Part shown: piece after piece, positions 6,916 to 60,012 of the stretch
Layout of the letters: each line of letters begins with the position of its first letter
How positions within the stretch are numbered: position 1 is the first letter of the stretch
Origin: Planctomycetota bacterium
GTDB lineage: Bacteria; Planctomycetota; UBA1135; GCA-002686595
Assembly: GCA_031400875.1 (NCBI GenBank)
Contig: JANNQS010000120.1
Span: forward strand, 8,569-72,568
Reading direction: 5' to 3'
DNA length: 64,000 nt
Translations under genes and position numbers: made by a program
The notes under the pieces: generated by a model
Seen by the model: the letters and a program-made list of their open reading frames with translations, nothing else
What the model was told of the DNA's origin: nothing
Database searches by the model: none

Positions 6916-6925
6916 GTGCGCGCAC

Positions 6926-42609: not shown

Positions 42610-45519
42610 TCAGCGCAGCTCGAGCCGAACGGTGTTCGCCGCACCGCGCCGGACTTCGACGGTCTGCTCGGGAGCCGAGGTTGCTCCCGGCGCGGCGCCG
42701 TCCGCTTCCACCCGAAGGCGCCACGTTCCCGGCTGCAATCCCCGGAAGCGCGCCGAGCCGTGGGCATCGGTCGTCGCCTCTTGGCTGGTTCCGGCTCCGG
42801 CGGGCACGGCGAGCACTCTGCGGGCCGATCCAGCTCGGCCGTCGGCGTAGGCGACGAGGACGTCCAGGGTGGCGCCCGCGACGAGCTTCAGGACCACGCC
42901 CGACCGGCTCTGGCCTGCAACGAGCCGCACGACCTCGGACTGCGCGGGCTGATGCTCCGCGCTCTCCGCGCGGACGATCACGTCGACGTCGCTCTGCACG
43001 CCGTGCAGCACGAAGGTGCCATCGGCGCCGCTGAAGACGCGCGCGTCGCCGGGAGTCTCGGCCAGGACGTCGCCACCCACGCCGACGCGCTCGGCTCGGA
43101 CGCGCAGGCCAGCGAGGGGCCGGCCATCCTCGTCGACCAGCCGTCCTTCGATCGCCCTGATCGGCAGGTCGACGTCGAACGTGCCCTGTGCTGCGGTGAC
43201 AGGCACTTCGCATTCGAAGGCCATCGCTCGCGCGGGATGAACGATGCTCGCGTCGTACGAGCCCAGCTCGAGGCTGTAGAACGTGTACTCCCCCCGGCCG
43301 TTCGTGCGTGCGACGCGCGGTTCATGGTCCGCTTCGCGCAGAGCGAGGTGGAGCGTGGCGCCCGACAGCGGCTGGCCGCCCTGGGTGACGCGGCCTGCCA
43401 ATCGCCCGCGCGCAACCGTCAGCGCCAGAACGTGCTCGGTGCCTTCGTTCACGTCGATCTCGCCCGCATGGCTGGTGGATTCTGCGAGAAACGTGTGCTT
43501 CCCCGCCTCCAAGTGGCGGAACGTGAACTGGCCGCGCTCATCGGTTCTGCATTCGCCTTGCGTTCGGAACGTCCCGGGTGCGACGACGTGCCGGATCGAC
43601 ACGCCCTGCACTGGATCACCGAGCAGCGTGCGGACATCCACGACGACCGTGCCTCCCGGGCGCAACCTCACCGTTTCTTCGTAGTCCGCGGCCTCGGGCA
43701 GCATGATCGTCCCGCTCCTGGATGGAGCGAACTCGGCGTGACGAACGCTCAGCGTCGCCGGCCATCCGCGCCAGCCCCGCAAGCGCGCCCTGCCTTCGGC
43801 GTTCGTGCGTGCGACCTCCTCGTGCCAATCACGCGGCCGCGCGGAAAAGTCGCTGACCCTTAAGCCGCTGGTCGCGGCCGCGACCAGCGAGACGTCGGCG
43901 TCGGACACCGGTGCGCCGCTCGCGTCGTCCACCACGCGCACGTCGAGCATCGGCGCGCGCTCCAGACGCAAGGTACCCAGATCGAGATCCTGACCTCGGA
44001 TCGGCTGCAGACCGCCAAGATGCAAGCTCTCGAATCCGTGGGCCTCGATCACGAGTTCGACCGGAAGGCTTCCAGGGCCTTCGTGACCGGTGCCCAGAAG
44101 GAGTCGAACGCCTCCGCCCTCGCGGTGGAGCGGCGCGATCGGGCGCCCGCCCAGGCTCACCTCGAGCTCCGTCACGGGTTCGGATGTCGCGGCATCGACA
44201 GCCCGGAACACGATCGTGGTCGGCGGCTCGTACACGAGCTCGACGCCGCTTGCGCCCGCGCGCACGTCGGCCCACGTCGTGCGCGCGCTGCCCAGGAGAT
44301 CGTGCTCGCCGTCGCGTCCCGACACCCGGTACATCGCGTCACGCGTCAACCCGCGTACGGCGAAGCTGCCGTCCTCCGCGCAGCGCGCGCTGCGCGGCAC
44401 GACGAGCAGCGCCGTCTCGTCGATGAGCGCGCCGGCGTAGACCGGGTCGGTGCCGCCCTGGCGCTGCGGAACGGCCCGCACCCACAGGTCGCGCAGCACC
44501 TCGGGCGGAGCGCGCACGACGCGGCCGCGGATCTCGGCGCCGTCCGCGAGCACGAACTCCAGGCCGTCCACGACCTGCCCGGGCCGCGACGTCTCGCCGC
44601 GCTCGATCTTGTCGGGGTGCCCGTCGGCCCGGATCAGCAGCATCCAGCGGCCGCTGCCGAGCTCGTCGATACGGAACGCGCCGGCCTCGTCCGTGGTCGC
44701 GACCACGTCCCCCATCGAAGCGCCCAGGATCACGGCCGATCGGGCCTCGGGATCGAGCCGGCGCACGAGCGCGCCCGCGACCGGGCGACGCGCCGTGTCG
44801 AGCACGCGACCGCCCAGCACGACGCTGTCCTCGAGCGCGACGTCGCCCAGCTCGTGCAGCGCGTCGAGGTTCGAGATCGAACGGTCGTGCGGCGCGAAAC
44901 CGCGCGCTCGCACGGCCAGCTTCAGGCTGCCGGCGGAAACGAGCGCGATGCGGAAGCGACCCTCCGCGTCCGACTTCGCGTCGGAACGGCGCGCCCACGC
45001 GAGCTGCGTGGGATCCAGATTCTCGACGGGCACCCCTCCCGATCGGTCGGCCGAGGCGACGTAGACGGTCGCGTTCGCGACGGGGTCGCCGCGCGGGTCG
45101 ACGACGCGTCCGGCGAACGAGCGCTCGAGCGCGTTGGACGAGTCCGCGCCCGCCGGTTCCGGATCGACTCGTGCGGGCGAGGCTGCTTCGCGCGGGAGAC
45201 CGGGGTCCATGTCGCTCATGCCGGACGCCGCGTCCGCACGCGTCGCCTCGACCGGAGGCGAGACCACGCCTTGCGCGTCGTCGTCGTAGAGCAGCAGGCA
45301 CGCCACGACGACCACCGCAGCCAGCGCGCCGATGGCGAGCAGAGGCTTCAGGGAACGCACGGTCCGGCCTTCGGGGAGGCGGGTCCAGCGGGCAGGCGAC
45401 GTGCCCCTGCGCGGCCGCCGGCCGCGGGACGCGCCGGCTCGAAAGCGGCCCCAATCCCGCCGGTCTCGGATAGGCTGGGCTCGACGGAGCTCTCCCTCTC
45501 GAGGGTCCCGTTCTCGCAT
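42610..45519 (-). CDS. Signal-anchored large surface protein with about 9 carboxypeptidase-regulatory-like (Ig-like beta-sandwich) repeats
   Basis: An Arg-rich N-terminal tail is followed by the TM segment LKPLLAIGALAAVVVVACLLLY. Repeats of the type GRVVDPRGDPVANATVYV...DAEGRFRI...G.Y.L follow. ATG 45519 was chosen. The rest of ORF 42610..47076 is antisense to the 45559..47097 gene. Confidence 0.75.
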   Translation of the reverse strand: MRERDPREGELRRAQPIRDRRDWGRFRAGASRGRRPRRGTSPARWTRLPEGRTVRSLKPLLAIGALAAVVVVACLLLYDDDAQGVVSPPVEATRADAASGMSDMDPGLPREAASPARVDPEPAGADSSNALERSFAGRVVDPRGDPVANATVYVASADRSGGVPVENLDPTQLAWARRSDAKSDAEGRFRIALVSAGSLKLAVRARGFAPHDRSISNLDALHELGDVALEDSVVLGGRVLDTARRPVAGALVRRLDPEARSAVILGASMGDVVATTDEAGAFRIDELGSGRWMLLIRADGHPDKIERGETSRPGQVVDGLEFVLADGAEIRGRVVRAPPEVLRDLWVRAVPQRQGGTDPVYAGALIDETALLVVPRSARCAEDGSFAVRGLTRDAMYRVSGRDGEHDLLGSARTTWADVRAGASGVELVYEPPTTIVFRAVDAATSEPVTELEVSLGGRPIAPLHREGGGVRLLLGTGHEGPGSLPVELVIEAHGFESLHLGGLQPIRGQDLDLGTLRLERAPMLDVRVVDDASGAPVSDADVSLVAAATSGLRVSDFSARPRDWHEEVARTNAEGRARLRGWRGWPATLSVRHAEFAPSRSGTIMLPEAADYEETVRLRPGGTVVVDVRTLLGDPVQGVSIRHVVAPGTFRTQGECRTDERGQFTFRHLEAGKHTFLAESTSHAGEIDVNEGTEHVLALTVARGRLAGRVTQGGQPLSGATLHLALREADHEPRVARTNGRGEYTFYSLELGSYDASIVHPARAMAFECEVPVTAAQGTFDVDLPIRAIEGRLVDEDGRPLAGLRVRAERVGVGGDVLAETPGDARVFSGADGTFVLHGVQSDVDVIVRAESAEHQPAQSEVVRLVAGQSRSGVVLKLVAGATLDVLVAYADGRAGSARRVLAVPAGAGTSQEATTDAHGSARFRGLQPGTWRLRVEADGAAPGATSAPEQTVEVRRGAANTVRLELR

Positions 45520-45558
45520 TCCCCCTGCATGTGATCCCGAGAGCGGATCCCGATTTCC

Positions 45559-47097
45559 ATGGACGCATCGATCACTCGATTGGATCAGCCCCTCCTCGTC
45601 CAGACTACCAGGAACGGCCGGAACGACAGGCGAGCACGCCGCGCGTTCTCCCGCGTGCTGCCCGTGCTCGCGCTCGTCGTCGCCGCGTCGTGCAGCGACT
45701 CCGGTGGCGGCGGTGGTGACGGTGGCGCAGCCGCGGCGGCCGCCGCCGACCTGGCCGCGGTCCGCACGTGGAACCGCATCGCGCTGGACGCGACCGGGCT
45801 CGACCACATGCCGTCGAACCAGGGTCCGCCGCACGTCTTCGGACAGCAGGTCGGCCCGTGCCGCGCCGCGCGCGCCGAGGCCATCGTGCACATCGCGATC
45901 TTCGAGGTCGTGAACGCGATCAAGGGCGGTCACGAGAGCTACGTCGGGATGGGTCCCGCGCCGGCCGGCACGTCGCTGCGCGCGGGCGTCGCACAAGCGG
46001 CGCACGACACGCTCACGGCGCTGTACCCGTCGCAGTCGGCGATCTTCGACGCGGCGCTGACCGACGAGCTGGACCAGGTTCCGGCCGGCACCGCCAAGAC
46101 TCAGGGCATCGCGCTGGGCCAGAACGCCGCGACGGCGATCCTGTTCCTGCGCGCGAACGACGGCTCGGCGCACCCCGAGCCGCTGGTCGGCGTCGACTAC
46201 TTCCCGGGCACCGCACCGGGCGAGTGGCGGCCGGACCCCGTCGCGCAACAGGCTGTCGCGCTGGGCGCCAACTGGTCCCAGGTGCTGCCGTTCGTGATGA
46301 CGTCGGCCGAGCAGTTCCGCATCCCGCCCCCGCCGGCGATCGACAGCCCCGAGTACGCGGTCGCGTTCAACGAGGTGCAGACGCTGGGTGGCGACGGCAC
46401 CGTCACGCCGACGACGCGCACGGCCGACGAGACGCACGCCGGGATCTACTGGGCCTACGACGGCGTGCCGAGCTTGTGCGCACCGCCGCGCCTCTACAAC
46501 CAGATCGCGGTGCAGATCGCCACGGAGCGCGGCACGAACGCGGCCGGGTTGGCGCGGCTGCTCGCGATCCTGAACGTAGCGATGGCCGACGCGGGCCTCG
46601 GCAGCTGGGAATCGAAGTACTTCTACAAGTACTGGCGTCCGGTCTGCGGGATCCGCGAGGCCGACGTCGGCACGGGGCCCAGCGGTCTGGGTGACAACAA
46701 CCCGGCAACCACCGGCGACGCGAACTACCTGCCGCTGTGCGCGCCCGCGAGCAACCTGACCGGGACGAACTTCACGCCGCCCTTCCCGGCCTATCCATCC
46801 GGGCACGCGACGTTCGGCGGCGCGATCTTCCAGGTCCTGCGGCGCTTCTACGGCACGAACAACATCGCGTTCACGTTCGTTTCGGACGAGTACAACGGCA
46901 TCACGACAGACAACACCGGCGCCGTGCGCCCGCTGCTGCCGCGCTCGTTCTCGAACCTGTCGGAACCGGAAGAGGAGAACGGCCAGAGCCGCATCTACCT
47001 CGGCATCCACTGGAGCTTCGACAAGACTCAGGGCATCCAGATGGGCAACATCATCGGCAATTACGTGTACGACCACGCGTTCCAGCCGGTGCCCTGA
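45559..47097 (+). CDS. PAP2-superfamily / vanadium-dependent haloperoxidase-like lipoprotein
   Basis: Lipobox LVVAASC. Motifs KYWRPVCGIR (KxxxxxxRP), PSGHATFGGA (PSGH) and SRIYLGIHWSFD (SRxxxxxHxxxD) are the acid phosphatase/haloperoxidase signature. Confidence 0.85.
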   Translation: MDASITRLDQPLLVQTTRNGRNDRRARRAFSRVLPVLALVVAASCSDSGGGGGDGGAAAAAAADLAAVRTWNRIALDATGLDHMPSNQGPPHVFGQQVGPCRAARAEAIVHIAIFEVVNAIKGGHESYVGMGPAPAGTSLRAGVAQAAHDTLTALYPSQSAIFDAALTDELDQVPAGTAKTQGIALGQNAATAILFLRANDGSAHPEPLVGVDYFPGTAPGEWRPDPVAQQAVALGANWSQVLPFVMTSAEQFRIPPPPAIDSPEYAVAFNEVQTLGGDGTVTPTTRTADETHAGIYWAYDGVPSLCAPPRLYNQIAVQIATERGTNAAGLARLLAILNVAMADAGLGSWESKYFYKYWRPVCGIREADVGTGPSGLGDNNPATTGDANYLPLCAPASNLTGTNFTPPFPAYPSGHATFGGAIFQVLRRFYGTNNIAFTFVSDEYNGITTDNTGAVRPLLPRSFSNLSEPEEENGQSRIYLGIHWSFDKTQGIQMGNIIGNYVYDHAFQPVP

Positions 47098-47166: not shown

Positions 47167-48855
47167 TTACGGCATCCAGTTGATCGACAGCGAGTTCGTC
47201 AGGTTGAACGTCGCTGCCGTGCAGAACGCGGCGGCGTTGCGGTACCAGACCTGGTACGTGCGGATCGCCGGAACCGTGATGTTCCCCTGGACCGAGATCG
47301 GCGGGTCGGATCCCGCCGGGTACTGGGACGAATTGCAGATGTTGCTCGTCGTGCCGAGCCGGATCGTCGCTCCGGCCACACAGCGCTTGCCGTCGCCGAA
47401 GAGCACGTTGTTGAACCCGGCACCCTGGAAGTACAGGCACGACGAGTTCGGCATGCCTAGGCCTTGCAGGACCACGGTGTCGTTCGCGAGCGACGCCGTG
47501 CCGAAGCCGACGAGCATCGCGCCGCGCGGCTCGACTGAGTTCGGGCAGCCGCGACCGGGCCCGCCCGCGGGGACGCCCGGGAAGCACGGGCAGGGACTGC
47601 CCGGATCGTCGCCGTAGCAGGCCGTGGCACCGACCGTGCTGATGCACGTGGGCTCGAGGTTCATGCGCACGAAGACGCCGTCGACACCGATCACCTTCGT
47701 CACGGGACCGCCGTTGGCCGAGTTCGACGTCAGATAGCCGAACTCGAGAGGTCCCCCGCTGCTCGAGAAGTCCGGTCGCAGCGGCGGGCCCGAGCTGAAC
47801 AGGTTCGTGAAGTCCTCGGAGGTGAGCTCCTGCTGGTAGCTGATCCACGACGGGATGAACACGTTGATCGTCGGACTGCCGAACCAGTCCGAGCCTTGGC
47901 GCACCACGAGCTGCAACCCGACCGCGCCGCCCACAGTCGGGAAAGTCAAGTGGTTGGCGGAGGCCAGGAACGTGACGGAGTAGACCGGCTCCGGGGCCGG
48001 ATCGTGCACCATCACCGTGGCGAGGTGGCTGACGACGATCGCGCCGTTGCTCCACGTGTGCGTCGTCTCCCGGTACGGACCGTTGTTGGTGCCGCCGGCG
48101 GGCTGCGTGACAGTCGACGTCGTGGCCGAGGCGCCCGGCGTCGTGTCGATCAGCTTCTGCGAGGTCCAGCTGCCCGGCAGGAAGTCGTCGTCGTACCAGG
48201 CCACGCGCGAGAGGTGGAGCGTCATCGTCCAGTTGTCGATGCCGCTGACCTTCGTCACCGGCCCGCCCGTCGCCGAGTTCCCCGTGATGAAGCCGAACTG
48301 GGTCCAGGGTCGCGTGCACGAGAAGTCGGGACGCGACGGCCCGCTGCCCGCGAAGAGCGTGAAGTCGGCGGCGGTCAGGCCTGTCTGGACGTACGAGGCC
48401 CACAGCGGATCGAACACGTTGATCGACGGTCCGCCGTAGTACGCCCCGTTCTGGACGATGCACAGGCGGTAGGAGACGGCTCCGCCCACCGTTGCCCCGG
48501 TCTGGTGGATCAGGTCGGCCGCGAAGTCGATCGAGCAGAACGGGACGTTGTTGTTCGAGTAGTAGTGCTGCGTATCGACGTGCGCGACCAGGATCGTCCC
48601 GTCGGCGTACGTGTGGCTCGTCTCGCGCCAGTCGCCCGAGGGCCCGCCGAACGACTGCGTCGTGCTCGTGAACGTCGCGCTCGCGCCCGGCGTCGTGTCG
48701 ACGATCTTCTGGCTCACCAGCCCGGGGCCGAATGTGCCATCGAGCATCACTTGCGTGTCGCTCGCGCGCGCGCTTCCCGTGAGCGCGATTGCAGCTGCGA
48801 GAGCAGGAACGAGGGCGGCGGGACGCAGACGACGGACACGGTCAAGGATCGACAT
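47167..48855 (-). CDS. Secreted protein: tandem duplication of an unrecognised ~170-aa domain + conserved Cys-rich C-terminal module (CTD copy 1)
   Basis: ATG 48855 follows GAGGAA. Signal peptide ...ALAAAIALTGSARA. Internal repeats carry SQK(I/L)(V/I)DTTPGASAT...RET.HT...TVGGAV...INVF.P.W.SY...DFT...SGP.RPDFS...NSA.GGPVTKV. The C-terminus reads ...FGDGKRC...YQVWYRN...FNLTN...WMP*. Confidence 0.8.
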   Translation of the reverse strand: MSILDRVRRLRPAALVPALAAAIALTGSARASDTQVMLDGTFGPGLVSQKIVDTTPGASATFTSTTQSFGGPSGDWRETSHTYADGTILVAHVDTQHYYSNNNVPFCSIDFAADLIHQTGATVGGAVSYRLCIVQNGAYYGGPSINVFDPLWASYVQTGLTAADFTLFAGSGPSRPDFSCTRPWTQFGFITGNSATGGPVTKVSGIDNWTMTLHLSRVAWYDDDFLPGSWTSQKLIDTTPGASATTSTVTQPAGGTNNGPYRETTHTWSNGAIVVSHLATVMVHDPAPEPVYSVTFLASANHLTFPTVGGAVGLQLVVRQGSDWFGSPTINVFIPSWISYQQELTSEDFTNLFSSGPPLRPDFSSSGGPLEFGYLTSNSANGGPVTKVIGVDGVFVRMNLEPTCISTVGATACYGDDPGSPCPCFPGVPAGGPGRGCPNSVEPRGAMLVGFGTASLANDTVVLQGLGMPNSSCLYFQGAGFNNVLFGDGKRCVAGATIRLGTTSNICNSSQYPAGSDPPISVQGNITVPAIRTYQVWYRNAAAFCTAATFNLTNSLSINWMP

Positions 48856-49015
48856 GGGGGTTCCTCGAGGATGCGGAGCGGCTCTCCCGGGATGTGCAGC
48901 GGCGGACCGCTCGTGGTAACGCGAACTCGAGGATTCTCGCATGGAACGGCTCGGTGGCGCGATTCCGTGTGCCGGCACCGGCTCGCCCCTCATCCGGCCG
49001 GCCAGTCGCGCTCGA

Positions 49016-51670
49016 TCAGGGACGCCAGTCGATGCTCAGCCCGTTCGTCAGGTTGAAGGTGCCCGCGGTGCAGAAGGCGTCCGGGTTGCGGTACCAGACC
49101 TGGTAGAGGCGCCGGCCCGGCGACGTTATGCCGCCGGCCGTGCTCACGTGTGGGTCGCCAGGGCCCGGGTAGCTCGATCCGCCGCCCACGTTGAGCACGG
49201 TCCTCATACGCACGACCGATCCGTTCACGCACCGCAACCCGTCGCCGAACACGACGCCCGCGCCACCGTTCACGGGCGTGGTGCCCTGGTAGTAGAGCGC
49301 TGCCGCATTGGTCATCTGCGTGCCGACGAGGACGAGCTCGTCGTGCGCTAGGCTCGCCCATCCGGTCGCGCGCAGCCGGCCCGCGAGCCCGAGCGAGTTC
49401 GTGCAGCCGTCACCGCTGCCGGCCGGGCTCGCATTGCCGCACGGACAGGCCGTTGCGCTGCCGTCGCCGGCGCAGAACGAGAGGCCGCTCGTGCTGCAGT
49501 TGCGCAGCACGGAGATGCTGTTGCTCGCGTAGTTCGCCGTCACCCAGTCGGGATCGCCGTCGCCGTCCACGTCACCGGCCGAGGCGAAGATCGGGCTCGC
49601 GCCCGTGTCGTACGAGGCCGGTGCGGCCAGCGTTCCGCCGCCCAGGTTCTCGAGCACGACAACGGCCGCATTCGCCACGCAGGCGACGTCGAGGTCGCCG
49701 TCCCCGTCCACGTCGGCGAGCGCGACGGACATGCTCGCTGCGCCCACGTCGTGGGAAACCGCGGCACCGAACACCCCGCTGCCGTTGTTCGGCAGCACCG
49801 CCACGGAGTTCCCTATCGTCGTCGCGACGGCCGCGTCGAGGTCTCCGTCGCCGTCCAGGTCCCCCAGCGCTACGGAGCCCGGGTTTCCGCCCACGGAATA
49901 CGAGGTTGGCGCCGCGAACGCGCCAATGCCGTTGTTCAGCGACACGAGCACGCGGCCCAGGCTGCTGTGCGTCGCGACGATGTCACGGTCGCCGTCACCG
50001 TCCACGTCGCCGATCGCCACGGAGAGCGAGCCGTAACCCGGTGCAGGGATCGCCGCCCCGCCCCCGAACGATCCGTTCCCTTGGTTGAGCGACACCGCGA
50101 TCGTGCCGACGGGACCGGTCGGAGCGTTGCCGGTCACGATGTCGAGCGCGCCGTCGCCGTTCAGGTCACCCAGCGCGATGGAGTTCGGCTGGAAGGAAGC
50201 GGCGTAGTTGACCTGTGCCGCGAACGTGCCGTTGCCGTTGCCCAGCAGCACCGAGACGTTTTCGCTGCCATGGTTGGCCGTGACGGCGTCCAGGTCGCCG
50301 TCGCCGTCCAGGTCGCCGCTGGCGATCGCGATCGGGCTCGTGCCTGTCCCGTACTGAGTCGAGGCTCCGAACGACCCGTCGCCCAGGCCCCGCAGCACGG
50401 ATACGTTTGCACCGCCGTGGTTGGCGGTGACGGCGTCGAGGTCACCGTCGCCGTCGAGGTCGCCGAGCGTCACGCCGTAGGGATTCATCCCGGCGGAATA
50501 CTGCGGCGCGGTCCAGAACGTGCCGTTCCCGGAGTTGATCAGCTGGAGGACGTGACCGGCGTCGCCGAGGACGTCGAGATCGCCGTCGCCATCGCGGTCC
50601 ACGACCACGGCGCAGAACGTGAGGCCGCCGCTGGGGAAGTTCACGGGCGCGGCGAACGTTCCGTTGCCCTGGTTGGAGAGCACGGACACTCCCCGGCCGT
50701 TGTACAACGCGACGGCAAGGTCGAGGTCGCCGTCGGTGTCGAGGTCGCCCAGCGCGACAGACCACGGATTCTGGCCCGCGGCGTAGGACGCCTGCGCCGC
50801 GAACGAGCCGTTGCCCAGGTTCATCAGCACGGACACGCTCGACGAACCGGTCGACGCCACGATGTCGGCGTGCCCATCGCCGTTCAGATCTCCGACCGCG
50901 ACCGACGACACGCTCGAGGAAGTGCCGTACAGGCTCGTCGAAGGGAAGGTGCCGTTGCCCGCATTGATCAGCACCGCCACGTTGGCACCGCTGTAATCAC
51001 CCACGACGATGTCGAGCCGGCCGTCACTGTTGAGGTCTCCGAGCGCCACGGACTGCGGGCCGGTACCCGTGGGATAGGACGTCGGCGCACCGAACGTGCC
51101 GTTGCCCGCATTGACCAGCACGGAGACGTTGTTGCCCTGCTGGTTGGCGACCACGATCTCGGCGCGACCGTCGCCGTTCAGGTCTCCGATCGCGACGGCG
51201 GCCGGATGGTTGCCGGCGGCGTACGTCACCTGGGTCGCGAACGTGCCGTTGCCGTTGTTGTGCAGCACGGAGACGTTCCACCCGGCGTAGTTGGGCGTCA
51301 CGATCTCGGGCCGTCCGTCCCCGTCCAGGTCTCCCACCGCGAGAGCGTTCGGTTGATCGCCCACGAAGTAGGCCACCGGGTTCGCGAACGCCGTGCCCGC
51401 GCCCTGCAGCAAGACCTCGACGGCGTCGTCGTAGAGGTTCGCCGAGACGAGGTCCGCATCACCGTCGCCGTCGAGGTCGCTGGCCGCCATCCAGACGGAT
51501 TGGGAGAGCGGGATCGAGCGCACACCCTCGAAGCACGGTCCTTGCGCTCGAGCCGACGCCGCGAGGGTGATCGCGACCACGCACACCAGCGCTCGCGCTG
51601 TCGCGGAAGATCTGGCGGTCGCGAGTCGTTCGCAGGACGCATCGCTGTGGGATCGGAAAACGTCATTCAT
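49016..51670 (-). CDS. Secreted FG-GAP/VCBS-repeat protein (about 14 repeats) + conserved Cys-rich C-terminal module (CTD copy 2)
   Basis: Repeats of the type GDLNGDG..DIV..N.....VSVL.N.GNGTF occur. ATG 51670 was chosen (an alternative is 51706). The C-terminus reads ...FGDGLRC...YQVWYRN...FNLTN...WRP*. Confidence 0.85.
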   Translation of the reverse strand: MNDVFRSHSDASCERLATARSSATARALVCVVAITLAASARAQGPCFEGVRSIPLSQSVWMAASDLDGDGDADLVSANLYDDAVEVLLQGAGTAFANPVAYFVGDQPNALAVGDLDGDGRPEIVTPNYAGWNVSVLHNNGNGTFATQVTYAAGNHPAAVAIGDLNGDGRAEIVVANQQGNNVSVLVNAGNGTFGAPTSYPTGTGPQSVALGDLNSDGRLDIVVGDYSGANVAVLINAGNGTFPSTSLYGTSSSVSSVAVGDLNGDGHADIVASTGSSSVSVLMNLGNGSFAAQASYAAGQNPWSVALGDLDTDGDLDLAVALYNGRGVSVLSNQGNGTFAAPVNFPSGGLTFCAVVVDRDGDGDLDVLGDAGHVLQLINSGNGTFWTAPQYSAGMNPYGVTLGDLDGDGDLDAVTANHGGANVSVLRGLGDGSFGASTQYGTGTSPIAIASGDLDGDGDLDAVTANHGSENVSVLLGNGNGTFAAQVNYAASFQPNSIALGDLNGDGALDIVTGNAPTGPVGTIAVSLNQGNGSFGGGAAIPAPGYGSLSVAIGDVDGDGDRDIVATHSSLGRVLVSLNNGIGAFAAPTSYSVGGNPGSVALGDLDGDGDLDAAVATTIGNSVAVLPNNGSGVFGAAVSHDVGAASMSVALADVDGDGDLDVACVANAAVVVLENLGGGTLAAPASYDTGASPIFASAGDVDGDGDPDWVTANYASNSISVLRNCSTSGLSFCAGDGSATACPCGNASPAGSGDGCTNSLGLAGRLRATGWASLAHDELVLVGTQMTNAAALYYQGTTPVNGGAGVVFGDGLRCVNGSVVRMRTVLNVGGGSSYPGPGDPHVSTAGGITSPGRRLYQVWYRNPDAFCTAGTFNLTNGLSIDWRP

Positions 51671-51837
51671 GTGCGCTCCGAATTGTTCGCTGGACCCCTC
51701 CAGCATACGGGTGCGCTCTCGGCGTGGGCGGCTGCGGCCCCCCCCCTCGCACCCGGAGCCCACGGCCCGGCGAGAGGTCGGGGCCAGAGGACCTGGGCCT
51801 TGGGCGCTTGCGCCTTCGATCGCGCGGCATGCACCGC

Positions 51838-51948
51838 TCAGCCGCTGAGATGCCGCTCGCGATGGACACCGCGCCACAGCAACACCGCGGCGAACAGGGG
51901 CGCGGCACAGCCGCAGACCACGATCACGGCGTCGAGCACGCCGCTCAT
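51838..51948 (-). CDS. Candidate 36-aa hydrophobic mini-protein
   Basis: MSGVLDAVIVVCGCAAPLFAAVLLWRGVHRERHLSG*. GC3 is about 31/35. It lies inside ORF 51838..52098, whose upstream part overlaps the tRNA gene. There is no strong SD. Confidence 0.25.
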   Translation of the reverse strand: MSGVLDAVIVVCGCAAPLFAAVLLWRGVHRERHLSG

Positions 51949-52036
51949 GCTGGGCACGTTCCAGGTCGCGGCCTGCGGGGCGACTCCCCGGCGAACGGGG
52001 AAGCTCCGTAGTCCCCAGAGGCCAGCCGAGGAGGAA

Positions 52037-52114
52037 TGGTCGGGGCGAGAGGATTCGAACCTCCGGCCTTTGCGTCCCGAACGCAACGCTCTAGCCAAGC
52101 TGAGCTACGCCCCG
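52037..52114 (-). tRNA. tRNA-Pro (anticodon CGG), CCA encoded
   Basis: The minus strand reads CGGGGCG-TA-GCTC-AGCTTGGCTA-GAGC-G-TTGCG-TTCGGGA-CGCAA-AGGCC-GGAGG-TTCGAAT-CCTCT-CGCCCCG-A-CCA. The cloverleaf folds correctly, and the anticodon loop is TT-CGG-GA. Confidence 0.93.
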
Positions 52115-52224
52115 ACCCTAGGGCGAAGAAGGATAGGAGCCGTCCCGAGTGCCGTCAATCGGCCAGAGGGCGCGGAACCGCCCGCTGTGCCCGGGAAGCG
52201 GGGCCGCCTGGCGCCCGCCCCGAC

Positions 52225-53787
52225 CTACTTGCCGAGATCGACGAAGACCCCGCCGTTCTCCTCGGCCATCCTGCGCATGAAGTCCTTCTGGAACTCCCCG
52301 ATCGCGATCGTGTGGATGATGATCTTGCGCAGCTCGTTGGCGGCCTTGATCTCGCGCAGGATGTCGTCCGGATCGACGAACTCCCCCACGGTCGGGCGGC
52401 CGTCCGACAGGAAGAAGATCGTGTCGATCTCGGTCTTGTAGTCCTTGTCGCCGGTCGTCGGGCCCTTCGTGGGATCGATCCCCATCGCGGTCATCATCGC
52501 GCCGTACGTGTTCGTCTTGCCCATGTCGAGGTTCGCCATGCCGGTGAGCCCGACGGAAGCCATATCCTCCTTCGACGAGCCGCCGATCGCGATCAGCCCC
52601 TTGACCCAGTCCTTCGCGGCCGACTTGTTCAGCACGTTGGCCGCCACGAGCTTGCCCTTCTTCCACGGGTCGACCTTCGTGGCGAACGACACGACGTTGA
52701 AGTTCACGAAGGGCTGCAAGCGCTCGATCGTGCGCATCAGCTCGGTCTTCACGATGTCGATGCGCTGGAAGCTCGGGTAGTTGCCGTCGCTGAAGCGTTC
52801 CTTCTCGACGACCTCGGCCTCCATGGATCCCGACACGTCGATCACGAACAGGACCGAGCGGCTGGGCGTCTGGATGCCGTGGTAGTCGCCGACGCCGGAC
52901 TTCGTGATGTCCCATCCGGGCGCGCCGGTCTTCGCCACGCGCTTCGTGCGCAGGTAGGCGATGGCTTCGGCGGTGGGCAGCACGAACGTGGCCTTGTTCG
53001 CCTCCCACCAGTTCTTCCAGGCCAGGGCCTCGACCATCTCGAGCCCGGTCAGGTTCGAGAGCGCCTCGACGATCTCGGGCGTGAGACGCCCCTCCTCGAC
53101 CTGCAGCCGCGCGACGAGCGGCGCGACCGCGTCCGCGTGGCGGATCTTCGTCAGCGCCTTGATCGCGCTCGTGCGCACCTGCCACAACGGATCGTTGAGG
53201 AGCTGCGTGGCCTTGGGCACGACCAACGGCGAGCTCAGCGTCGTCAACGTCTCGAGCGCCTGCCCGCGCACGGCCGGCTCGGGATCCTCGAGCAGCGGCG
53301 CGCAGGCCGCGTCCGCTCCCGGTTCCTTCGAGACGGCCAGCACCTGCAACGCGTGCCGGCGCACTTCCCACGACTTGTCGGCCAGCGCGCTCTGCGCCAG
53401 CGCCAGCGCGCCGTCGTACTTCCCGTCGCCGATGGCGCGCAGCATCCCGACGCGCACGAGGTCGTTCTTCTCGCCCTTGTACGCCGTGAACAGCGCTTCG
53501 ATCGTGCCGGGCGACGGCAGCTTCGCGAGCACCTTCACGGCCGCGCGCACGACCTCGCCCTCGGGATCCTTCAGGATCGGCACGAGCACGGCGACGACCT
53601 GGTTGTCGTCGACGCCTTCGAGCGAGAGCACCGCCTCGACGCGCGAAGGCGTGTCCTGGTACGTCTTGAAGTACTTCTTGAAGTTGACGATCGTGTCGTC
53701 GGCCGAGGCCAGGACCGGCAGGGCGACGAAGACGAGCAGGAGGAGCGCGCGGACGAGTTGGGGCATGCCTGGGAGGGGTCGCGCCAC
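52225..53787 (-). CDS. Secreted HEAT-repeat + von Willebrand factor A (VWA) domain protein
   Basis: Signal peptide LLLLVFVALPVLASA. HEAT-like units (DPEGEVVRAAVKVLAKL, DKSWEVRRHALQVLA, DPEPAVRGQALETL, DPLWQVRTSAIKAL). VWA MIDAS motif VLFVIDVSGSM. An alternative start is ATG 53766. Confidence 0.85.
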   Translation of the reverse strand: MARPLPGMPQLVRALLLLVFVALPVLASADDTIVNFKKYFKTYQDTPSRVEAVLSLEGVDDNQVVAVLVPILKDPEGEVVRAAVKVLAKLPSPGTIEALFTAYKGEKNDLVRVGMLRAIGDGKYDGALALAQSALADKSWEVRRHALQVLAVSKEPGADAACAPLLEDPEPAVRGQALETLTTLSSPLVVPKATQLLNDPLWQVRTSAIKALTKIRHADAVAPLVARLQVEEGRLTPEIVEALSNLTGLEMVEALAWKNWWEANKATFVLPTAEAIAYLRTKRVAKTGAPGWDITKSGVGDYHGIQTPSRSVLFVIDVSGSMEAEVVEKERFSDGNYPSFQRIDIVKTELMRTIERLQPFVNFNVVSFATKVDPWKKGKLVAANVLNKSAAKDWVKGLIAIGGSSKEDMASVGLTGMANLDMGKTNTYGAMMTAMGIDPTKGPTTGDKDYKTEIDTIFFLSDGRPTVGEFVDPDDILREIKAANELRKIIIHTIAIGEFQKDFMRRMAEENGGVFVDLGK

Positions 53788-53897
53788 AGGGGCGAGGAAC
53801 CATCCTAGCCCTCGGGGACGCGACGGTTATCGGCGCAGTCGCCGCCCGTGTCGCCCGACCCTGACCCTGTCGCTGGCCTGTCCCTGTCGCTGGGCCC

Positions 53898-55991
53898 TCA
53901 GGGCCGCGCCGGGCGCGCCGCGGCGGGCTCGGCCGCCGAGATCTCGTCGGCGTCCACGGTCAGCCGCGCGCCGGCGTCGGTCACGAGCGTCACAGTGCGC
54001 CCTTCGCGGGACACGACCGTGCCGTAGAACACGCCGCCGGCCGTGCGCACGCGCTGGCGGGCCGTGGCCGGGGCGGGCGTCTCGCCGACCTCGGCGATCT
54101 GTTCCAGGCCGCGCATCCGCGCACTTTCGACCTGGATCGGGCCGGCGTCGGTCGTGAGCCACACGCGGCCCTGGCCGATCGCGGTCAGGCGACCCTCTTC
54201 GCGCTGCGCACCGTCGAGGCGCACGCGCACGCGCCCCACCGCGGGCGTCTCGAGGCGCAGCGTGCCGTCGAGCGCCTCGATCGGAACGGTCGTGCCCTCC
54301 CAGATCCCGGTCATGCCCGAGCTGGGCGTCGCGTGTCCCGCGGCGGCCGGAACGGCGGCACCCGCGACGGTCGCGGCGGCGGGCACGGCACGCTCACCGG
54401 CGTGCGCCGGAGTCACGGCGCGGAACGCACCCAGGTCGGCCAGCGGCGACGACGCGCGGCTCTGTTGCGCGAGCCAGCGCTCGACGCGCTCGCGCACCGC
54501 GTCGTCCGCCGGACCGCTCGAGCCGCCGGGCGCCGTCGCCGGGACGGGCGCGTCGAGCACCGGCGCCACCGGTGCAGGCGGCAGCGCGTAGACGACGAGC
54601 GCGGGTGTTTCGGGCTCCGGCGCAGTTTCGAGCAGCGCGCCCTGCGGCGACGCGTCCGGTTTCTGCGCCGCATTCGCACCACGGCGCTTCACGTTCACGG
54701 GCGCGGACTGCGTGCGCGGCAACCGGTCCGCCTCGGCCGGCGTGAGCAGCTCGACGGGCGCCGCCGAACGCGCGCGCTCGGTCGGCTGAACGGGAGCCGC
54801 AGGCGTCACGGGCGGCTTCGATCCGCCCAGGAGCAGCGTTTTCGTGATCACGGCGCACAGGAACAGCCCGGCCAGGATCGCGAGGCCGCGCACGAACCAC
54901 GGCGCGACGTGCGCGGCCGGGACCGAACCGTCATGGAAGGACGCGTTCGACGGCGCGGCGCGCGGCACGAACGAAGGGTGCGCCGGCGGAGCCGCGCCGT
55001 CCGCGAGCTCGAGCAGCCAGCTCGGGCGATCCGCGGGCTCGATTGCGACGGGTCCGTTCGCAGGAGGTGCGCTGACGCGCCAGTTGTTCGGACGCACGTC
55101 GGGCCAGCTCGGCGCGAGCGCGTGGTTCTGCGGCAGGAGTTCCTGCGGCGGCATCGCGATCGGCGCCGCCGGACGGACAGGCTGCGCGACTGGCGCGCGC
55201 GGCGGCGCTGGGATCGGTCGGGGCGCAGGCGGGGGCGCCGGCTCGGCGGGTCCGAGCGCGTGCATCTGGGCGTGGAAGTCCGTCGGGCTCAGCGCCGGTC
55301 GAGCGAGCCAGCTCGGCGGGAAGGGCTGCTGCGGCTGCGGGATCGGACGCGGAGCGGGCAGCGGCGCGTGGAAACCCGACTGCGCTAGCGACGATTGACC
55401 CTTCGAGCTCGGCGGCAACGCCTGCGGCCGCGCCTGCGGCGGCGGCAGCGGACGCGGGGCAGGCGACGGCGCGTGAAAACCCGTCTGGCCGAGCGGAGGC
55501 TGAGCCCGCGGCGCTGCCGGGGGCATCGGCGGCGAAGGCAGAGGCGCCTGGAAGCCGGTTTGTTCGAGCGGCGGTTGCGACTGCCAGCCGGAGGTCGCTT
55601 GCGAAGGCAACGGCGGAGGCACCGGCGGCCGCTGCGAGGCTCCTGGCGCGAAGTACCCCGTCTGGGTCAGCGGCGCGGGGCGACCAACGGGTGCGGCGAA
55701 AAGACCCGGCTGGGGCTGGATCCCCGCCGGCGGCGGATACCCAGGCTGCGGAGGGTTGGGTTGCGGATGAGCGGGATGCGGATAACCAGGCTGAGGAAAG
55801 AACCCGGTCTGGACCTGCTGCCCGACCGACGGTCCCTGAGCAGCGGGACGCGCCGGACCGGGCCGCGGCTGCAATCCGGGCGGCGCGTTCAGGCCGAGCT
55901 CAGCCCCCAGGCCCAGGAAGTCCTCGGAGCCCCCCGGCGGAAGCGGATCGGGTTGGAACGGATTTCCCGGCGGTCGTTTGGAGACGGACAT
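53898..55991 (-). CDS. Proline-rich repeat protein with single TM segment and C-terminal SH3/Tudor-like duplicated module
   Basis: The N-terminal ~330 aa are Pro/Gln-rich, with six L-x-Q-(T/S)-G-(F/Y)-x-A-P repeats. The TM segment is LAILAGLFLCAVITKTLLLGG. The C-terminus carries RVRVRLDG...GRLTAIGQGRVWLTTDAG and GVFYGTVVSREGRTVTLVTDAG. Confidence 0.75.
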   Translation of the reverse strand: MSVSKRPPGNPFQPDPLPPGGSEDFLGLGAELGLNAPPGLQPRPGPARPAAQGPSVGQQVQTGFFPQPGYPHPAHPQPNPPQPGYPPPAGIQPQPGLFAAPVGRPAPLTQTGYFAPGASQRPPVPPPLPSQATSGWQSQPPLEQTGFQAPLPSPPMPPAAPRAQPPLGQTGFHAPSPAPRPLPPPQARPQALPPSSKGQSSLAQSGFHAPLPAPRPIPQPQQPFPPSWLARPALSPTDFHAQMHALGPAEPAPPPAPRPIPAPPRAPVAQPVRPAAPIAMPPQELLPQNHALAPSWPDVRPNNWRVSAPPANGPVAIEPADRPSWLLELADGAAPPAHPSFVPRAAPSNASFHDGSVPAAHVAPWFVRGLAILAGLFLCAVITKTLLLGGSKPPVTPAAPVQPTERARSAAPVELLTPAEADRLPRTQSAPVNVKRRGANAAQKPDASPQGALLETAPEPETPALVVYALPPAPVAPVLDAPVPATAPGGSSGPADDAVRERVERWLAQQSRASSPLADLGAFRAVTPAHAGERAVPAAATVAGAAVPAAAGHATPSSGMTGIWEGTTVPIEALDGTLRLETPAVGRVRVRLDGAQREEGRLTAIGQGRVWLTTDAGPIQVESARMRGLEQIAEVGETPAPATARQRVRTAGGVFYGTVVSREGRTVTLVTDAGARLTVDADEISAAEPAAARPARP

Positions 55992-56072
55992 GCTGCGCGA
56001 GGTCGATCGGAAGGCTCATCGGCAGGCCCCTGCTCACGGTTGAGCACCGACCGCAGGAAACGAATTCCTTTC

Positions 56073-56097
56073 GGGCGCGCTCTTGAACAGCGCGCCC
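56073..56097 (-). terminator. Stem-loop downstream of selB (possible terminator, no U-tract)
   Basis: gggcgcgct-cttgaac-agcgcgccc is a 9-bp perfect stem, about 90 nt after the selB stop. Confidence 0.3.
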
Positions 56098-56187
56098 ACT
56101 CTGTTGGGCGCGCGGGGCGCGCGCCGAGCGCGCGCTCCGCGCGCGCGGGGGGGCATGGGGCGCGGTTTGGGCGCGCGCCCTTCCTCC

Positions 56188-58110
56188 TCACCTGCGACGG
56201 AGGATGCGGGTCGCGCCTTGGCGGATCGTCACGCCGGTCGTGTCGAAGTGCTCGAGCAGGGGGATCAGGAATTTGCGGGTGGTCTGCAGCTCGTCGCGCA
56301 GGGAGGGGATGTCGAGCGACTTGTGGGCTTCGCAGTTGCGGACGATCGCGGCACGCGCGGCTTCGTAGGTGGTGTTCGCGAGGTAGATCTCGCCGGGCTG
56401 GATCGCGCGGGCCTCGCCGCGGTCGATCAGGAGCTCGATCGCGCGCTGGATCGATTTCGCGGGCACCTTGAGCTGCTCGCTCAGCTCGGTGGGAGAGGGC
56501 GGTTGGTAGCGAGCGGCCTCGAGCGCGGCGCGCACGCGGCCGAGCAGGTCCTCCAGAGCGGGATCGAGAGCGGGCTTCTCGCTCGTGCGGCGCACGAGGC
56601 CGCCGGGCTCGACCTTGGCCTGCCCGCACTTCTCCAGCTCCTGCAGCACGGCTTGCAGGAAGTCGGGCGCGAAGCCGGTCGCGCGGCGCAGCTCGCGCAC
56701 GTCCATGACCTCGCGGTGCGCGTGCTCGCCTTCGAACCAGGTCTTGAGGGCAGTTTCCGTGCGCGTGATCGCGGCGGCGAGGCGCTCGGGATGGATCCAG
56801 CGCGGCGGATTGCCCAGGCGCAAGGCCTTCTTCTGCGAGCCCAGGTCGTTCAAGAGCCGCTCGGTCTCGTCGCGCGAGCGCTTGATCTCGACCGAGAGGT
56901 CTTCGGGCGTGTGCAGGCCGGCGCGCGCGCGCAGGAGCACGACCTCGAGCAACTCGCGCGGCGAGGACAGCCCTTGCGACGCGCGCGTGAGCTCCTCGAG
57001 CACGAACTTCTTGTAGCGCTTGAGGCGGTGCTTGCTCTCCTCGAGCACGACGCCGCCGCCCAGCACGTAGGCCGGCGACGCGAGCCGCAGGACGAAGCGG
57101 TCGCCGGGCGCGACCACGACGGCTTCCGAGAGCCGCAGTTGCGCCAGCGCGGTGCCGCCCGGCGCGAGCGCGTCGCAGTCGAGCAGCACGAGCTCGCCCA
57201 GCACTTCGGCCGTGCCGGCGTGGAAGCGCACCTCGGTGCGGTCCTCGATCGGACGGTCGAGGTTCGCGAGCGCAGTCACCTGCGCGCCCAGCATCGTCGC
57301 GCCGCGGAAGAACCCGGGCGTGGCCGCGACCATGCCGCGCGCGACGTCGTGGTGGTCGACGTCCGTGACGTTGATCGCGCTGGAATGGCCGGCGCGGATC
57401 GTGTCGACGGACTCCTGGTAGGCCTGCAGCGCACGCACTTTCGTCGTCAATCCGGGCGGCAGGATCTCGAGCACGTCGCCGACCTTGGCCGTCCCCGACA
57501 TGGGGATGCCCGTGATGACCGTGCCGTGGCCGTGCGAGCTGAACACGCGCTGGATCGGCAGGCGGAAGACGCCATCGGAGCTGCGCGGCTTCGTCTCCGC
57601 GGCCATGCGGAAGAGGACCTTCTTGAATTCCTCCAGACCCTGCCCGGTGAGGCTCGAGAGCGGCAGGATCGGCGCGTTCTCGAGGAACGTGCCCTGCACG
57701 GCCTGCCGCACGTCCTCGGCCGCCAGCTCGACCATCGCGGCGTCGACCGCATCGATCTTCGTCAGCGCGACGAGCCCGCGCTGCAATCCGAGCAGCGTCA
57801 TGATCGCCAGGTGCTCGCGCGTCTGCGGCATGACGCCGTCGTCGGCCGCGACCACGAGAATCACGACGTCGATGCCCGTCGCGCCGGCGACCATGTTCTT
57901 GACGAACTTCTCGTGCCCGGGCACGTCGACGATGCCGACCGTGCGCCCGTCCGGCAGCTGGAAGCGCGCGAAGCCGATGTCGATCGTCATCCCCCGCTCC
58001 TGCTCCTCGCGCAGGCGGTCGGGGTCGATGCCCGTCAGCGTCTTGACCAACGTCGACTTGCCGTGGTCGATGTGGCCGGCCGTGCCGACGACGATGGGCT
58101 GGATCTGCAT
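56188..58110 (-). CDS. selB: Selenocysteine-specific translation elongation factor SelB
   Basis: ATG 58110 gives [21 protein letters not shown] (G1). DVPGHEKF (G3) and TKID (G4) follow. The length is 640 aa with a long C-terminal winged-helix-type extension, typical of SelB rather than EF-Tu. Confidence 0.9.
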
Positions 58111-58130
58111 CGAGCGACGCAGTTTAGGGT

Positions 58131-58152
58131 GGACAACGGTGTCAGACACCTT
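58131..58152 (+). repeat. Copy C of the oriented palindromic element
   Basis: ggacaacGGTGTCAGACACCtt lies 21 bp from the selB ATG, in the divergent region, and ends 115 bp upstream of the FG-GAP gene ATG. Confidence 0.8.
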
Positions 58153-58266
58153 GTCCCACGTTGGAGCGCAGCGGAGGGCCTTCGCCGCGCGTTCTCGGTC
58201 GCGGACCGGAATCGCCTGCAACGGCCCGTGCGATTGGGGACAAGAGCGGTCTCCCGGAGGTCCCCC

Positions 58267-60012
58267 ATGACGCGCACGCTGCTGCTCGCCCCCTGTCTCG
58301 CCCTGTTGGCCCCGTCCGCGGCGGCACTGTCCCCAGCGGCACAGGGCCCGCTGCTCCACCGTTTCCTGGGGGACGGTGTGGACAGCCAATTGGGTTTCGC
58401 GGTCGCCGGGATCGGCGACGTCGACGGGGACGGGCACGCAGACCTGATCGCGGGCGCGCCGACGGACGGCACGGCAGCGCTGCCGGCCACCGGCGCCGTG
58501 CGCGTCTTCTCGGGGGCGACGGGCGCGGTCCTCTGGACGGCCTACGGCGAGGGCAGCACGGACCGTCTGGGCTGGGTCGTCAACGACGTCGGCGACACGA
58601 ACGGGGACCAGATCCCGGACGTGATCGCGGGCGCGTACCAGAACGACGCCCACGGGACGGACGCCGGCATGATCCGGATCTACTCGGGATTGGACGGGAC
58701 GGTGCTGCGCACGATCCGCGGCGGGGACTCAGAGGATCTCTACGGGTACACCGTGACCGGAGCGGGCGACGTCGACCTCGACGGTGCGGCGGACTTCGCC
58801 GTCGGGGCGTGGCAGGACGAGACGAACGGCTTCGCCTCCGGCGCGGTGTACCTGTACTCGGGCGCGACCGGCGTCCGCTTGCGCACGTGGCTCGGCACGG
58901 GCGTGAACCACCGCTTCGGCTACAGCGTGCGCAACGCCGGCGACCTCGACGGCGACAACCGGCCGGAGCTCCTGATCGGCGTGCCCGGCGCGCGGCGCGT
59001 CGAGATTCGCAGCGGCGCGGACGGCTCGCTCTTCCGCACGCACCAGAGCACCGTGCTCGCGTTCGGCTTCGTCGTGCAGACGGCGCAGGACGTCGACGGC
59101 GACGCCGTTCCCGATCAGATGGTCACGGCTTTGAAGCACGACCAGAACCGCGGCCTGGTCGAGATCTTCTCGGGCGGGTCCGGTGCGCTGCTCCACCACC
59201 TGGAGGGCAACGCGCAAGAGGACTGGTTCGGCGTCGGCATCTGCGGCCTGGGCGACGTCGACGGCGACGGACGCGGCGAGTTCTCGATCACGGCCTTCAA
59301 GAACGACACGAACGGGCACGAGTCCGGGATCATGCGCATCTACTCGGGCGCGAGCGGGGCCGTGTACACGACCTACTTCGGCGATTCGGGCGACGACTGG
59401 TTCGGCTACGCGCTGAACTACGCTGGGGACGTCGACGGCGACGGCGTCGCGGACCTCATCGTGGGCACGAACCAGGACAACGTGAACGGCTTCCACTCCG
59501 GCAGCGTCAGCGTCTACTCGGGCGCGGCGATCGGCACGGCGACGACGTTCTGCTACGGCGACGACTCGGGTGCTGTCTGCCCGTGCGGCAACGCCGGACC
59601 TGCCGGCATCGCACGCGGCTGCCAGAACTCGACCGGGGTCGGCGCGGCGCTGCAGGGCTTCGGGTTCGCGAGCGTCGCCAACGACTCGTTCGCGCTGTGC
59701 GTCTCGGGCCTGCCGTCGACGACGGCGGTGCTGCTGTTCCAGGGCTCGACCAAGGTCGGCAACGGAGCGGGCGCGCCGTTCGGCGACGGCCTGCGTTGCG
59801 TGACGGGCTCCGTGCGGCGATTGTCGACCACGTTCAGCTCGTACGGCGTCGCGCAGTGGCCGTGGTTCAACACGACGCCGCTGGCGCAGCTCGGACAGAT
59901 CCCGGCCGCGGGCGCGACGGTGCACTACCAAGCCTGGTATCGGAACCCGGCCGGTCCGTGCGGCGGCGCGTTCAACCTGACGAACGCAGCGACGGCGACC
60001 TGGTCGCCCTGA
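58267..60012 (+). CDS. Secreted integrin-alpha-like FG-GAP repeat protein + conserved Cys-rich C-terminal module (CTD copy 3)
   Basis: Signal peptide [20 protein letters not shown]. Repeats are of the type FG.AV.G.GDVDGDG.ADLI.GA. The C-terminus reads ...FGDGLRC...YQAWYRN...FNLTN...WSP*. Confidence 0.88.

Follow-up and report, generated by a model that had tools for sequence, protein, structure and literature searches.

A conserved six-cysteine C-terminal module on diverse secreted proteins of uncultured Planctomycetota, a candidate sorting or anchoring domain

Three genes of the window end in a shared module

A 64,000-nt stretch of a Planctomycetota contig (JANNQS010000120.1; 70.8% G+C), referred to here as the window, contains three genes, W1, W2 and W3, whose products end in a shared module of about 155 amino acids (aa) with six conserved cysteines (Table 1). 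A preliminary description of this DNA had placed three C-terminal modules at 47167..47622, 49016..49477 and 59548..60012, and the translations confirm them, the first two on the minus strand and the third on the plus strand. The copies align over 157–160 aa, with 50 invariant columns and 44–52% identity (MAFFT); the least similar pair, at 44% identity, gives a BLASTP E value of 3e-31. When a profile of the three copies was run against a six-frame translation of the window, exactly three matches were returned (E 1e-79 to 3e-86, 260–283 bits) and no fourth copy was found. The motifs first read from the three copies (C-x-G-D, C-P-C, G-C-x-N-S, F-G-D-G-x-R-C, Y-Q-x-W-Y-R-N, F-N-L-T-N and W-x-P-stop) are all present.

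W1 and W2 are neighbours, as first reported, and share a strand, with the stop codon of W2 beginning at 49016 and the start of W1 at 48855. Two start codons are candidates for W2, and its upstream extension is bounded by a tRNA-Pro gene. All three proteins have a Sec-type signal peptide at the N terminus, as read from the sequence; that of W1 has a basic n-region, a hydrophobic core and an A-x-A site, a reading made without a predictor. W1 is 100% identical to an NCBI-derived database protein of 562 aa (P0259), and an identical 581-aa gene call for W3 is present in a public assembly. W3 is contained in a 1,309-aa open reading frame (ORF; 56083..60012, +), the 5′ two-thirds of which are antisense to selB; the real start of W3 is at 58267. 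The longest ORF for selB would overlap the 5′ end of W3, and the gene probably has its real start downstream of where that ORF begins.

The regions between signal peptide and module, here termed cargo, had been described as unrelated in architecture. This holds for W1 and W2, whose cargoes show no similarity (BLASTP, E ≥ 10), but not fully for W2 and W3, both of which carry FG-GAP repeats, in different architectures of one repeat class. That class had been named correctly for both proteins, and Pfam delimits 13 stretches in W2. The W1 protein matches no Pfam or NCBIfam family, and the duplicated domain noted in it is indeed present as two copies, 47% identical to each other (E 2e-47).

Table 1. 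Coordinates of the module-bearing genes and other features of the window
Feature	Position	Strand	Description
W1 gene	47167..48855	−	562 aa: signal peptide, two jelly-roll (carbohydrate-binding-module-like) domains, C-terminal module; from translation
W1 signal peptide	48763..48855	−	Sec-type, MSILDRVRRLRPAALVPALAAAIALTGSARA/SD; read by eye from the sequence
W1 cargo	47641..48762	−	Tandem copies of a jelly-roll domain of about 180–185 aa with 'choice-of-anchor'-type behaviour
W1 module	47170..47637	−	156 aa; 8 Cys, two of them the additional pair characteristic of the W1 subfamily
W2 gene	49016..51670 or 49016..51706	−	884 aa (M at 51670) or 896 aa (M at 51706): signal peptide, FG-GAP stretches, C-terminal module
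W2 module	49019..49495	−	159 aa; sequence used for the structure model
tRNA-Pro	52037-52114	−	Anticodon CGG; ARAGORN/Rfam; sole RNA gene that these found in the window
W3 gene	58267..60012	+	581 aa: signal peptide, 5 FG-GAP stretches (Pfam), C-terminal module
W3 module	59530..60009	+	160 aa; most divergent of the three window copies
selB	56188-58653	−	GTP_EFTU, SelB beta-barrel and winged-helix domains
CarboxypepD_reg protein	42610-47076	−	1,488-aa protein of CarboxypepD_reg (prealbumin-like) repeats
Sigma-factor fusion	10295-13174	+	959 aa: ECF-type (extracytoplasmic function) sigma-70 regions 2 and 4 N-terminal, then a long extension
Subtilase	70-2136	−	Peptidase_S8 and Big_7 domains, no module
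S9 peptidase	24444-27002	+	Prolyl-oligopeptidase-family protein, no module

A large family without a curated model

Six isolated modules were compared with Pfam-A and NCBIfam (release 20, June 2026), collections that include models for PEP-CTERM, type IX secretion system (T9SS) C-terminal domains (CTDs) of types A and B, dockerin, GlyGly-CTERM and similar signals. Zero families were matched at E ≤ 10, in keeping with the initial failure to assign the module to a known sorting signal. A sequence search of the PDB returned nothing better than E 0.4, the NCBI copies of module proteins are unnamed or annotated 'hypothetical protein', and we found no description of this module in the literature.

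The family is nevertheless real and very large. A word-index search gave 977 module matches, and an exhaustive scan with a hidden Markov model (HMM) of 1.84 billion representatives of 50% identity clusters recovered 9,282 proteins at E ≤ 1e-3, 6,340 at E ≤ 1e-10 and 2,539 at E ≤ 1e-30. With one genome taken per GTDB species, at least 528 copies were confirmed by tblastn. The best 80 of these all belong to 14 uncultured Planctomycetota metagenome-assembled genomes (MAGs), which come from lakes, glacier-fed streams, groundwater and a membrane bioreactor. The five richest MAGs hold at least 22, 14, 14, 10 and 10 distinct copies, counted in the fetched loci alone, and 33 of 78 loci contain two or three carrier genes each.

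The consensus of 380 unique members, about 150–160 aa long, reads C-x-G-D-G...C-P-C-G-N...G-C-x-N-S...F-G-D-G-L-R-C...Y-Q-x-W-Y-R-N...F-C...F-N-L-T-N...W-x-P-COOH, and each of its motifs recurs in the three window copies. Conservation of the cysteine positions, first noticed in those copies, extends to the family: all six are invariant in the window and in 377–379 of the 380 members. Two further cysteines of the W1 subfamily, a seventh and an eighth, occur together in 31 of 32 cases, the pattern that would be expected of an additional disulfide. At the end of the module, tryptophan occupies position −3 in 325 and proline position −1 in 212 of 346 unique modules; the junction with the cargo has the consensus P/T-G-T-P/A-F/Y-C. 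The tail (...YQVWYRNAAAFCTxxTFNLTNGxxVxWxP) contains neither a hydrophobic stretch nor an Arg/Lys cluster. Across 93 cluster representatives, 28 columns are invariant. In W1 orthologues, conservation is higher for the module than for the cargo (mean identity 63% versus 55%), and the identity of the module levels off at about 50–58% where that of the cargo drops to 42%.

A divergent subfamily was observed in P0294, a 393-aa protein from a JGI metagenome in which the module follows a single W1-type cargo domain. Here, G-G-G-L-R-C and Y-Q-L-L-Y-R-D replace F-G-D-G-L-R-C and Y-Q-V-W-Y-R-N; the module family is therefore wider than the present consensus.

Position, export and cargo of the carriers

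The preliminary description had presented the module as always C-terminal, on the basis of three copies. In the wider family it ends 0–3 residues before the stop codon in 120 of 120 word-index matches, in all 114 complete copies from the 78 genome loci and in 135 of 136 cluster representatives. The apparent internal copy, in P0164, is followed by an Arg-rich nonsense tail of the kind typical of a frameshift in GC-rich DNA. The module is single-copy in all of the approximately 370 carriers inspected, and none has it in tandem.

Secretion, also proposed at the outset, is borne out by the carriers from the genome loci: about 103 of 118 have a Sec-like signal peptide, as recognized by a crude pattern, and none looks cytoplasmic. 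Some proteins appeared to consist of the module alone, with no signal peptide (for example, P0023, 158 aa), and were found to be truncated gene calls. At the P0023 locus (L080 5551-6480, JBGAOR010000054.1), a HAF-like repeat lies in frame upstream and is broken by a stop codon; a pseudogene or misassembly is the probable explanation.

The diversity of the cargo likewise extends well beyond the window: the cargoes of 279 carriers fall into at least 81 BLAST clusters. Propellers (FG-GAP, Kelch, SBBP, delta-60 and Rax2) and the many domains for which no model exists, not glycoside hydrolases, dominate the Pfam and NCBIfam censuses. The remaining cargoes include C-type lectin, cupredoxin, cytochrome-c-like, DUF4394 and GBD_T9SS_assoc domains, together with enzymes such as endonuclease I, esterases and an M23 peptidase.

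Predicted fold of the module

To describe the fold, we used an AlphaFold2 model of the W2 module (159 aa, alignment of 65 sequences), which has a mean predicted local distance difference test (pLDDT) score of 88.8 and a predicted template-modelling (pTM) score of 0.88. The model is an all-beta sandwich of about 11 strands with two short helical turns, and its confidence is lowest in the Cys-rich N-terminal 30 residues. The six cysteines, which are invariant and so lack covariation, probably form three disulfides, and two conserved G-D-G loops could bind Ca2+.

A comparison with lectin and jelly-roll folds, proposed together with the first description, was negative for the module. Foldseek searches with the model gave a best E value of 0.024 against the PDB (TM-score 0.28–0.40) and of 0.011 against BFVD, with no match at E ≤ 0.001 in either. 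The matches to lytic polysaccharide monooxygenase (LPMO), chitin-binding and fibronectin type III (FnIII) folds, with TM-scores of 0.3–0.4, reflect generic beta-sandwich likeness. By contrast, the W1 cargo domain, which served as a method control, was recognized as similar to the carbohydrate-binding module (CBM) families CBM11, CBM4 and CBM22 at E 6e-6 to 1e-3. Because the control was recognized and the module was not, the module does not have a standard lectin or CBM fold. An outer-membrane beta-barrel anchor was also considered and is ruled out by the short strands, the sandwich model and the six cysteines.

Homologous cargo ends in the module or in PEP-CTERM-type tails

The W1 cargo domain gives a confident AlphaFold2 model (pLDDT 89.5), with the flagellar sheath protein FlaA1 as the top Foldseek match (E 4e-6), followed by CBM11 (E 6e-6 to 1e-5). 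It has 48 detectable homologues. The close ones (552–572 aa) carry the module, whereas the distant ones include proteins from other bacteria in which the domain occurs singly and a PEP-CTERM-type tail stands in place of the module. The tails of four distant homologues read ...TPEPGSATLLITLCLGTAGFARRRRRR (P0298), ...VPLPATAWLLATACAAVAFRRGLK (P0296, with VPLPATAWLL...FRR), ...PVPIPSAALLLVTGVMALPWWRRQRR (P0305) and ...LPEPSTAAGVAVGSMLLVMLSRKRSR... (P0299). These tails were assigned to the PEP-CTERM type by their architecture, their HMM scores being below the cut-offs.

A second case is provided by the cargo of P0127, which is DUF642-like and unrelated to that of W1. A single homologue of this cargo was detected: P0307, encoded in a Phycisphaerales MAG, which is 52% identical to the P0127 cargo over the full length and has the tail ...PTPGSALASMAVLYAATRRRRR. 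Since homologous cargo ends in PEP-CTERM-type tails, the module fills the slot that elsewhere belongs to processed sorting or anchoring signals. The same logic was applied when PEP-CTERM was established (PMC1569441). A search of about 800 kb of DNA from the window and the loci with a crude PEP-CTERM pattern, which is weak evidence, found none.

Several cargoes match the NCBIfam 'choice-of-anchor' families TIGR05002 and TIGR04362 and the HAF repeat. The 'choice-of-anchor' families are defined by alternative C-terminal anchors. They describe the cargo and not the anchor, and the module is not among the anchors modelled by NCBIfam. The W1 cargo is itself a domain of the 'choice-of-anchor' type that has no model.

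Comparison with known C-terminal systems

Proteins secreted by the T9SS combine a Sec signal with a folded beta-sandwich at the extreme C terminus, found on many diverse carriers within one lineage (PMC4804311, PMC12618676). The module resembles the T9SS CTD (Por_Secre_tail, TIGR04183/PF18962) in being a terminal beta-sandwich on Sec-exported, diverse cargo, present in dozens of copies per genome in one lineage, and some cargo families are common to both (SBBP, delta-60 and galactose-binding-like domains). However, no match to TIGR04183, PF18962 or TIGR04131 was obtained with the modules at E ≤ 10 or with full proteins at E ≤ 1. The T9SS CTD is a seven-stranded Ig-like beta-sandwich of about 70–100 aa (PMC4804311), whereas the module has about 155 aa, about 11 strands, a Cys-rich N-terminal loop, six invariant cysteines and higher conservation. 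Its hosts, moreover, are Planctomycetota rather than Bacteroidota, where T9SS CTDs go together with the PorK/L/M/N, SprA/Sov and PorU/V machinery; a Por machinery is not known and none was observed.

PEP-CTERM is likewise found on many carriers per genome, which have signal peptides and cargo of diverse kinds (Haft et al. 2006, PMC1569441). The module shares with the PEP-CTERM/exosortase system (TIGR02595, PF07589) the C-terminal position, the many copies per genome, the signal peptides, the poorly annotated cargo and the occurrence in environmental diderms, and the two kinds of terminus occupy the same position on homologous cargo. The PEP-CTERM signal is, however, a motif of about 25 aa with a transmembrane helix and an Arg cluster, whereas the module is a 155-aa soluble fold with neither a transmembrane segment nor a PEP motif. 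More generally, it does not belong with the signals that end in a transmembrane tail (PEP-CTERM, VPLPA-, GlyGly-, MYXO- and IPTL-CTERM, and LPXTG): it has no helix, no basic cluster and no HMM match.

Dockerin paralogues of one organism are conserved because all bind one partner. Like type I dockerin (PF00404), the module occurs once per protein, has conserved paralogues and sits on diverse secreted cargo at what for dockerin is usually the C terminus, and its G-D-G loops are possible Ca2+-binding sites. Type I dockerin is, however, a helical domain of about 70 aa with a duplicated EF-hand-like Ca2+-binding repeat of about 22 aa, whereas the module is all-beta, has twice that size and is rich in disulfides; the Pfam search gave no dockerin match at E ≤ 10, and a cohesin-like scaffold was not found. 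The module differs from CBMs and lectins in being always terminal and single-copy, on cargo that is not dominated by glycoside hydrolases. Taken together, these comparisons suggest that the module works like a C-terminal sorting or anchoring domain and yet belongs to none of the families considered.

Interpretation and alternatives

We consider it probable that the module represents a new family of C-terminal surface sorting or anchoring domains in an uncultured, high-GC lineage of Planctomycetota. The sorting or anchoring role put forward in the preliminary description is supported in each part that could be tested, and we infer the function itself. Under this reading, the carriers would share a surface destination and a common partner. 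A role in sorting or anchoring is favoured over binding of a common substrate because of the anchor swap and the 'choice-of-anchor' cargo.

A mechanism can be proposed on this basis. A Sec signal peptide would export each carrier across the cytoplasmic membrane, and the module of about 155 aa would then fold in the oxidizing periplasm into a compact beta-sandwich. Three disulfides, in which the cysteines of F-G-D-G-L-R-C and of A-F-C also take part, would tie the N-terminal Cys-rich loop of the module (C-x8-C-x-C-x11-C) to the sandwich. One common partner, possibly an outer-membrane export or attachment machine or else an envelope receptor or polymer, would recognize the folded module with its free C terminus (W-x-P-COOH). 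Diverse cargoes, including propellers, lectin-like domains, cupredoxins, esterases and nucleases, would in this way be delivered to the cell surface and held there. The module would thus play in this lineage the part that PEP-CTERM/exosortase, the T9SS CTD or LPXTG plays elsewhere. We favour its retention after translocation over its cleavage because it is large, Cys-stabilized and conserved to a degree that would be unusual for a discarded part. We propose only tentatively that the module is the secretion or attachment signal of an undescribed Planctomycetota sorting system with its own outer-membrane translocon and/or transpeptidase. In function, such a system would be a counterpart of T9SS/PorU or PEP-CTERM/exosortase.

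Several points weigh against a sorting or anchoring role. The exchange of termini is documented for two cargo families, and the exchanged tails score below the curated cut-offs (14.9 against 16 bits for TIGR02595, 17.4 against 20.7 for PF07589 and 16.5 against 25.35 for TIGR03370). The taxonomic view is that of the best 80 genome copies, and the C-terminal position was checked in the best-scoring members (about 370 proteins) and not in the weaker part of the 9,282. A conserved, disulfide-rich domain of 155 aa is unlike short processed signals and could equally bind a ligand. Finally, no family of non-carrier genes recurs beside the carriers across the 78 loci. The lack of a recurrent partner gene beside cargo genes is also usual for PEP-CTERM and T9SS.

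The alternative that survives best, to be taken seriously although we regard it as unlikely, is a sub-case of the sorting or anchoring reading: a T9SS-like signal that serves only for outer-membrane export and is cleaved off by a sortase-like peptidase. In this case, a dedicated translocon would recognize the module, and the cargo would either be moved onto a glycan or lipid anchor or be released. The carriers do have the profile of T9SS cargo (PMC4804311, PMC12618676), their cargo classes overlap with it (GBD_T9SS_assoc, SBBP and delta-60 repeats), and the module is interchangeable with PEP-CTERM, itself a processed signal. However, no similarity to the T9SS CTD models was detected at E ≤ 10, the top 50 Foldseek matches in the PDB include no T9SS CTD structure, and no machinery genes were seen. 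A module about twice the size of the T9SS CTD, far more conserved and with six invariant cysteines would also be an odd investment if it were discarded.

It is improbable that the module is a CBM- or lectin-like domain that binds an external polysaccharide, a mineral or a prey surface instead of the producer cell. The all-beta sandwich model is compatible with this, as are the two G-D-G loops with their possible Ca2+ sites, and the top Foldseek matches, weak as they are, are to chitin-binding, LPMO and Ig/FnIII-like folds (E 0.02–0.1, TM-score 0.3–0.4). None of the matches to a CBM or lectin is significant, however, and the terminal, single-copy position in about 370 carriers differs from that of CBMs, which are found N-terminally, internally and in tandem. 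Carbohydrate-active enzymes do not dominate the cargo, which has cupredoxins, cytochrome-c-like domains and propellers among its members, two CBM-like domains are already present in W1, and on homologous cargo the module replaces PEP-CTERM tails, which anchor proteins in the membrane.

We give little credence to a role in self-association or matrix assembly, in which modules would bind each other, for example by strand swap, or bind a dockerin-like scaffold and so build a coat or complex. Paralogues of the module are highly conserved within and between genomes, as dockerins are within a species, and, as with most dockerins, there is one module per protein, at the C terminus. Carrier genes also often occur in clusters, as noted above, and T9SS CTDs can dimerize through a swap of the C-terminal strand (PMC4804311). 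Against this, no dockerin similarity was found, and 730 kb of flanking DNA revealed no scaffold with repeated receptor domains. Chance similarity or an artefact of shadow ORFs or low complexity, which the GC-rich window with its many long spurious ORFs (that containing W3 among them) might suggest, can be dismissed in view of pairwise E values of 3e-31 or better, thousands of homologues with invariant cysteines, a confident AlphaFold2 model, a third-position G+C content of 0.85–0.88 in the stop-to-stop frames holding W1 and W2, and independent public gene calls that match.

Each of the sorting domains LPXTG, PEP-CTERM and T9SS CTD opened the way to the discovery of a machine dedicated to sorting or secretion, and C-terminal sorting domains allow the surface proteome to be predicted for whole phyla. 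How the cell surface is built in the environmentally widespread uncultured Planctomycetota is poorly understood. At present the module is the best marker for surface and secreted proteins of this lineage and a practical entry point towards a possibly new sorting system. It marks thousands of 'hypothetical' proteins (9,282 clusters, dozens of copies per genome), and a curated HMM would label that proteome at once and provide a presence/absence pattern with which to search for the partner. The fold, which has no significant structural relative in the PDB or BFVD, is a worthwhile target for structure determination.

Neighbouring genes and lineage of the window

The CarboxypepD_reg repeat protein of the window is encoded directly downstream of W1 on the same strand, and at locus L080 a CarboxypepD_reg protein (6625-9174) likewise lies downstream of a module-bearing gene. 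This neighbour was considered as a partner and rejected, as it does not recur in other loci. The largest neighbour families of the 78 loci proved to be shadow ORFs antisense to the module or the cargo, together with ubiquitous Ser/Thr kinases, and none was specific to the carriers.

The extension of the sigma-factor fusion protein holds a CarboxypepD_reg-like domain, an unusual combination. Two peptidases, a subtilase and an S9 protein, are encoded in the window and lack the module (Table 1). The presence of selB indicates that the organism uses selenocysteine.

The segment 19279-24439 of the window is syntenic with locus L045 (JAPLOF010000045.1, Lac Pavin Planctomycetota MAG_71_14), at 75–87% nucleotide identity. 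On the basis of this identity and synteny, the window belongs to the uncultured Planctomycetota lineage of MAG_71_14. At L045, a module-bearing gene that has no counterpart in the window adjoins the syntenic block.

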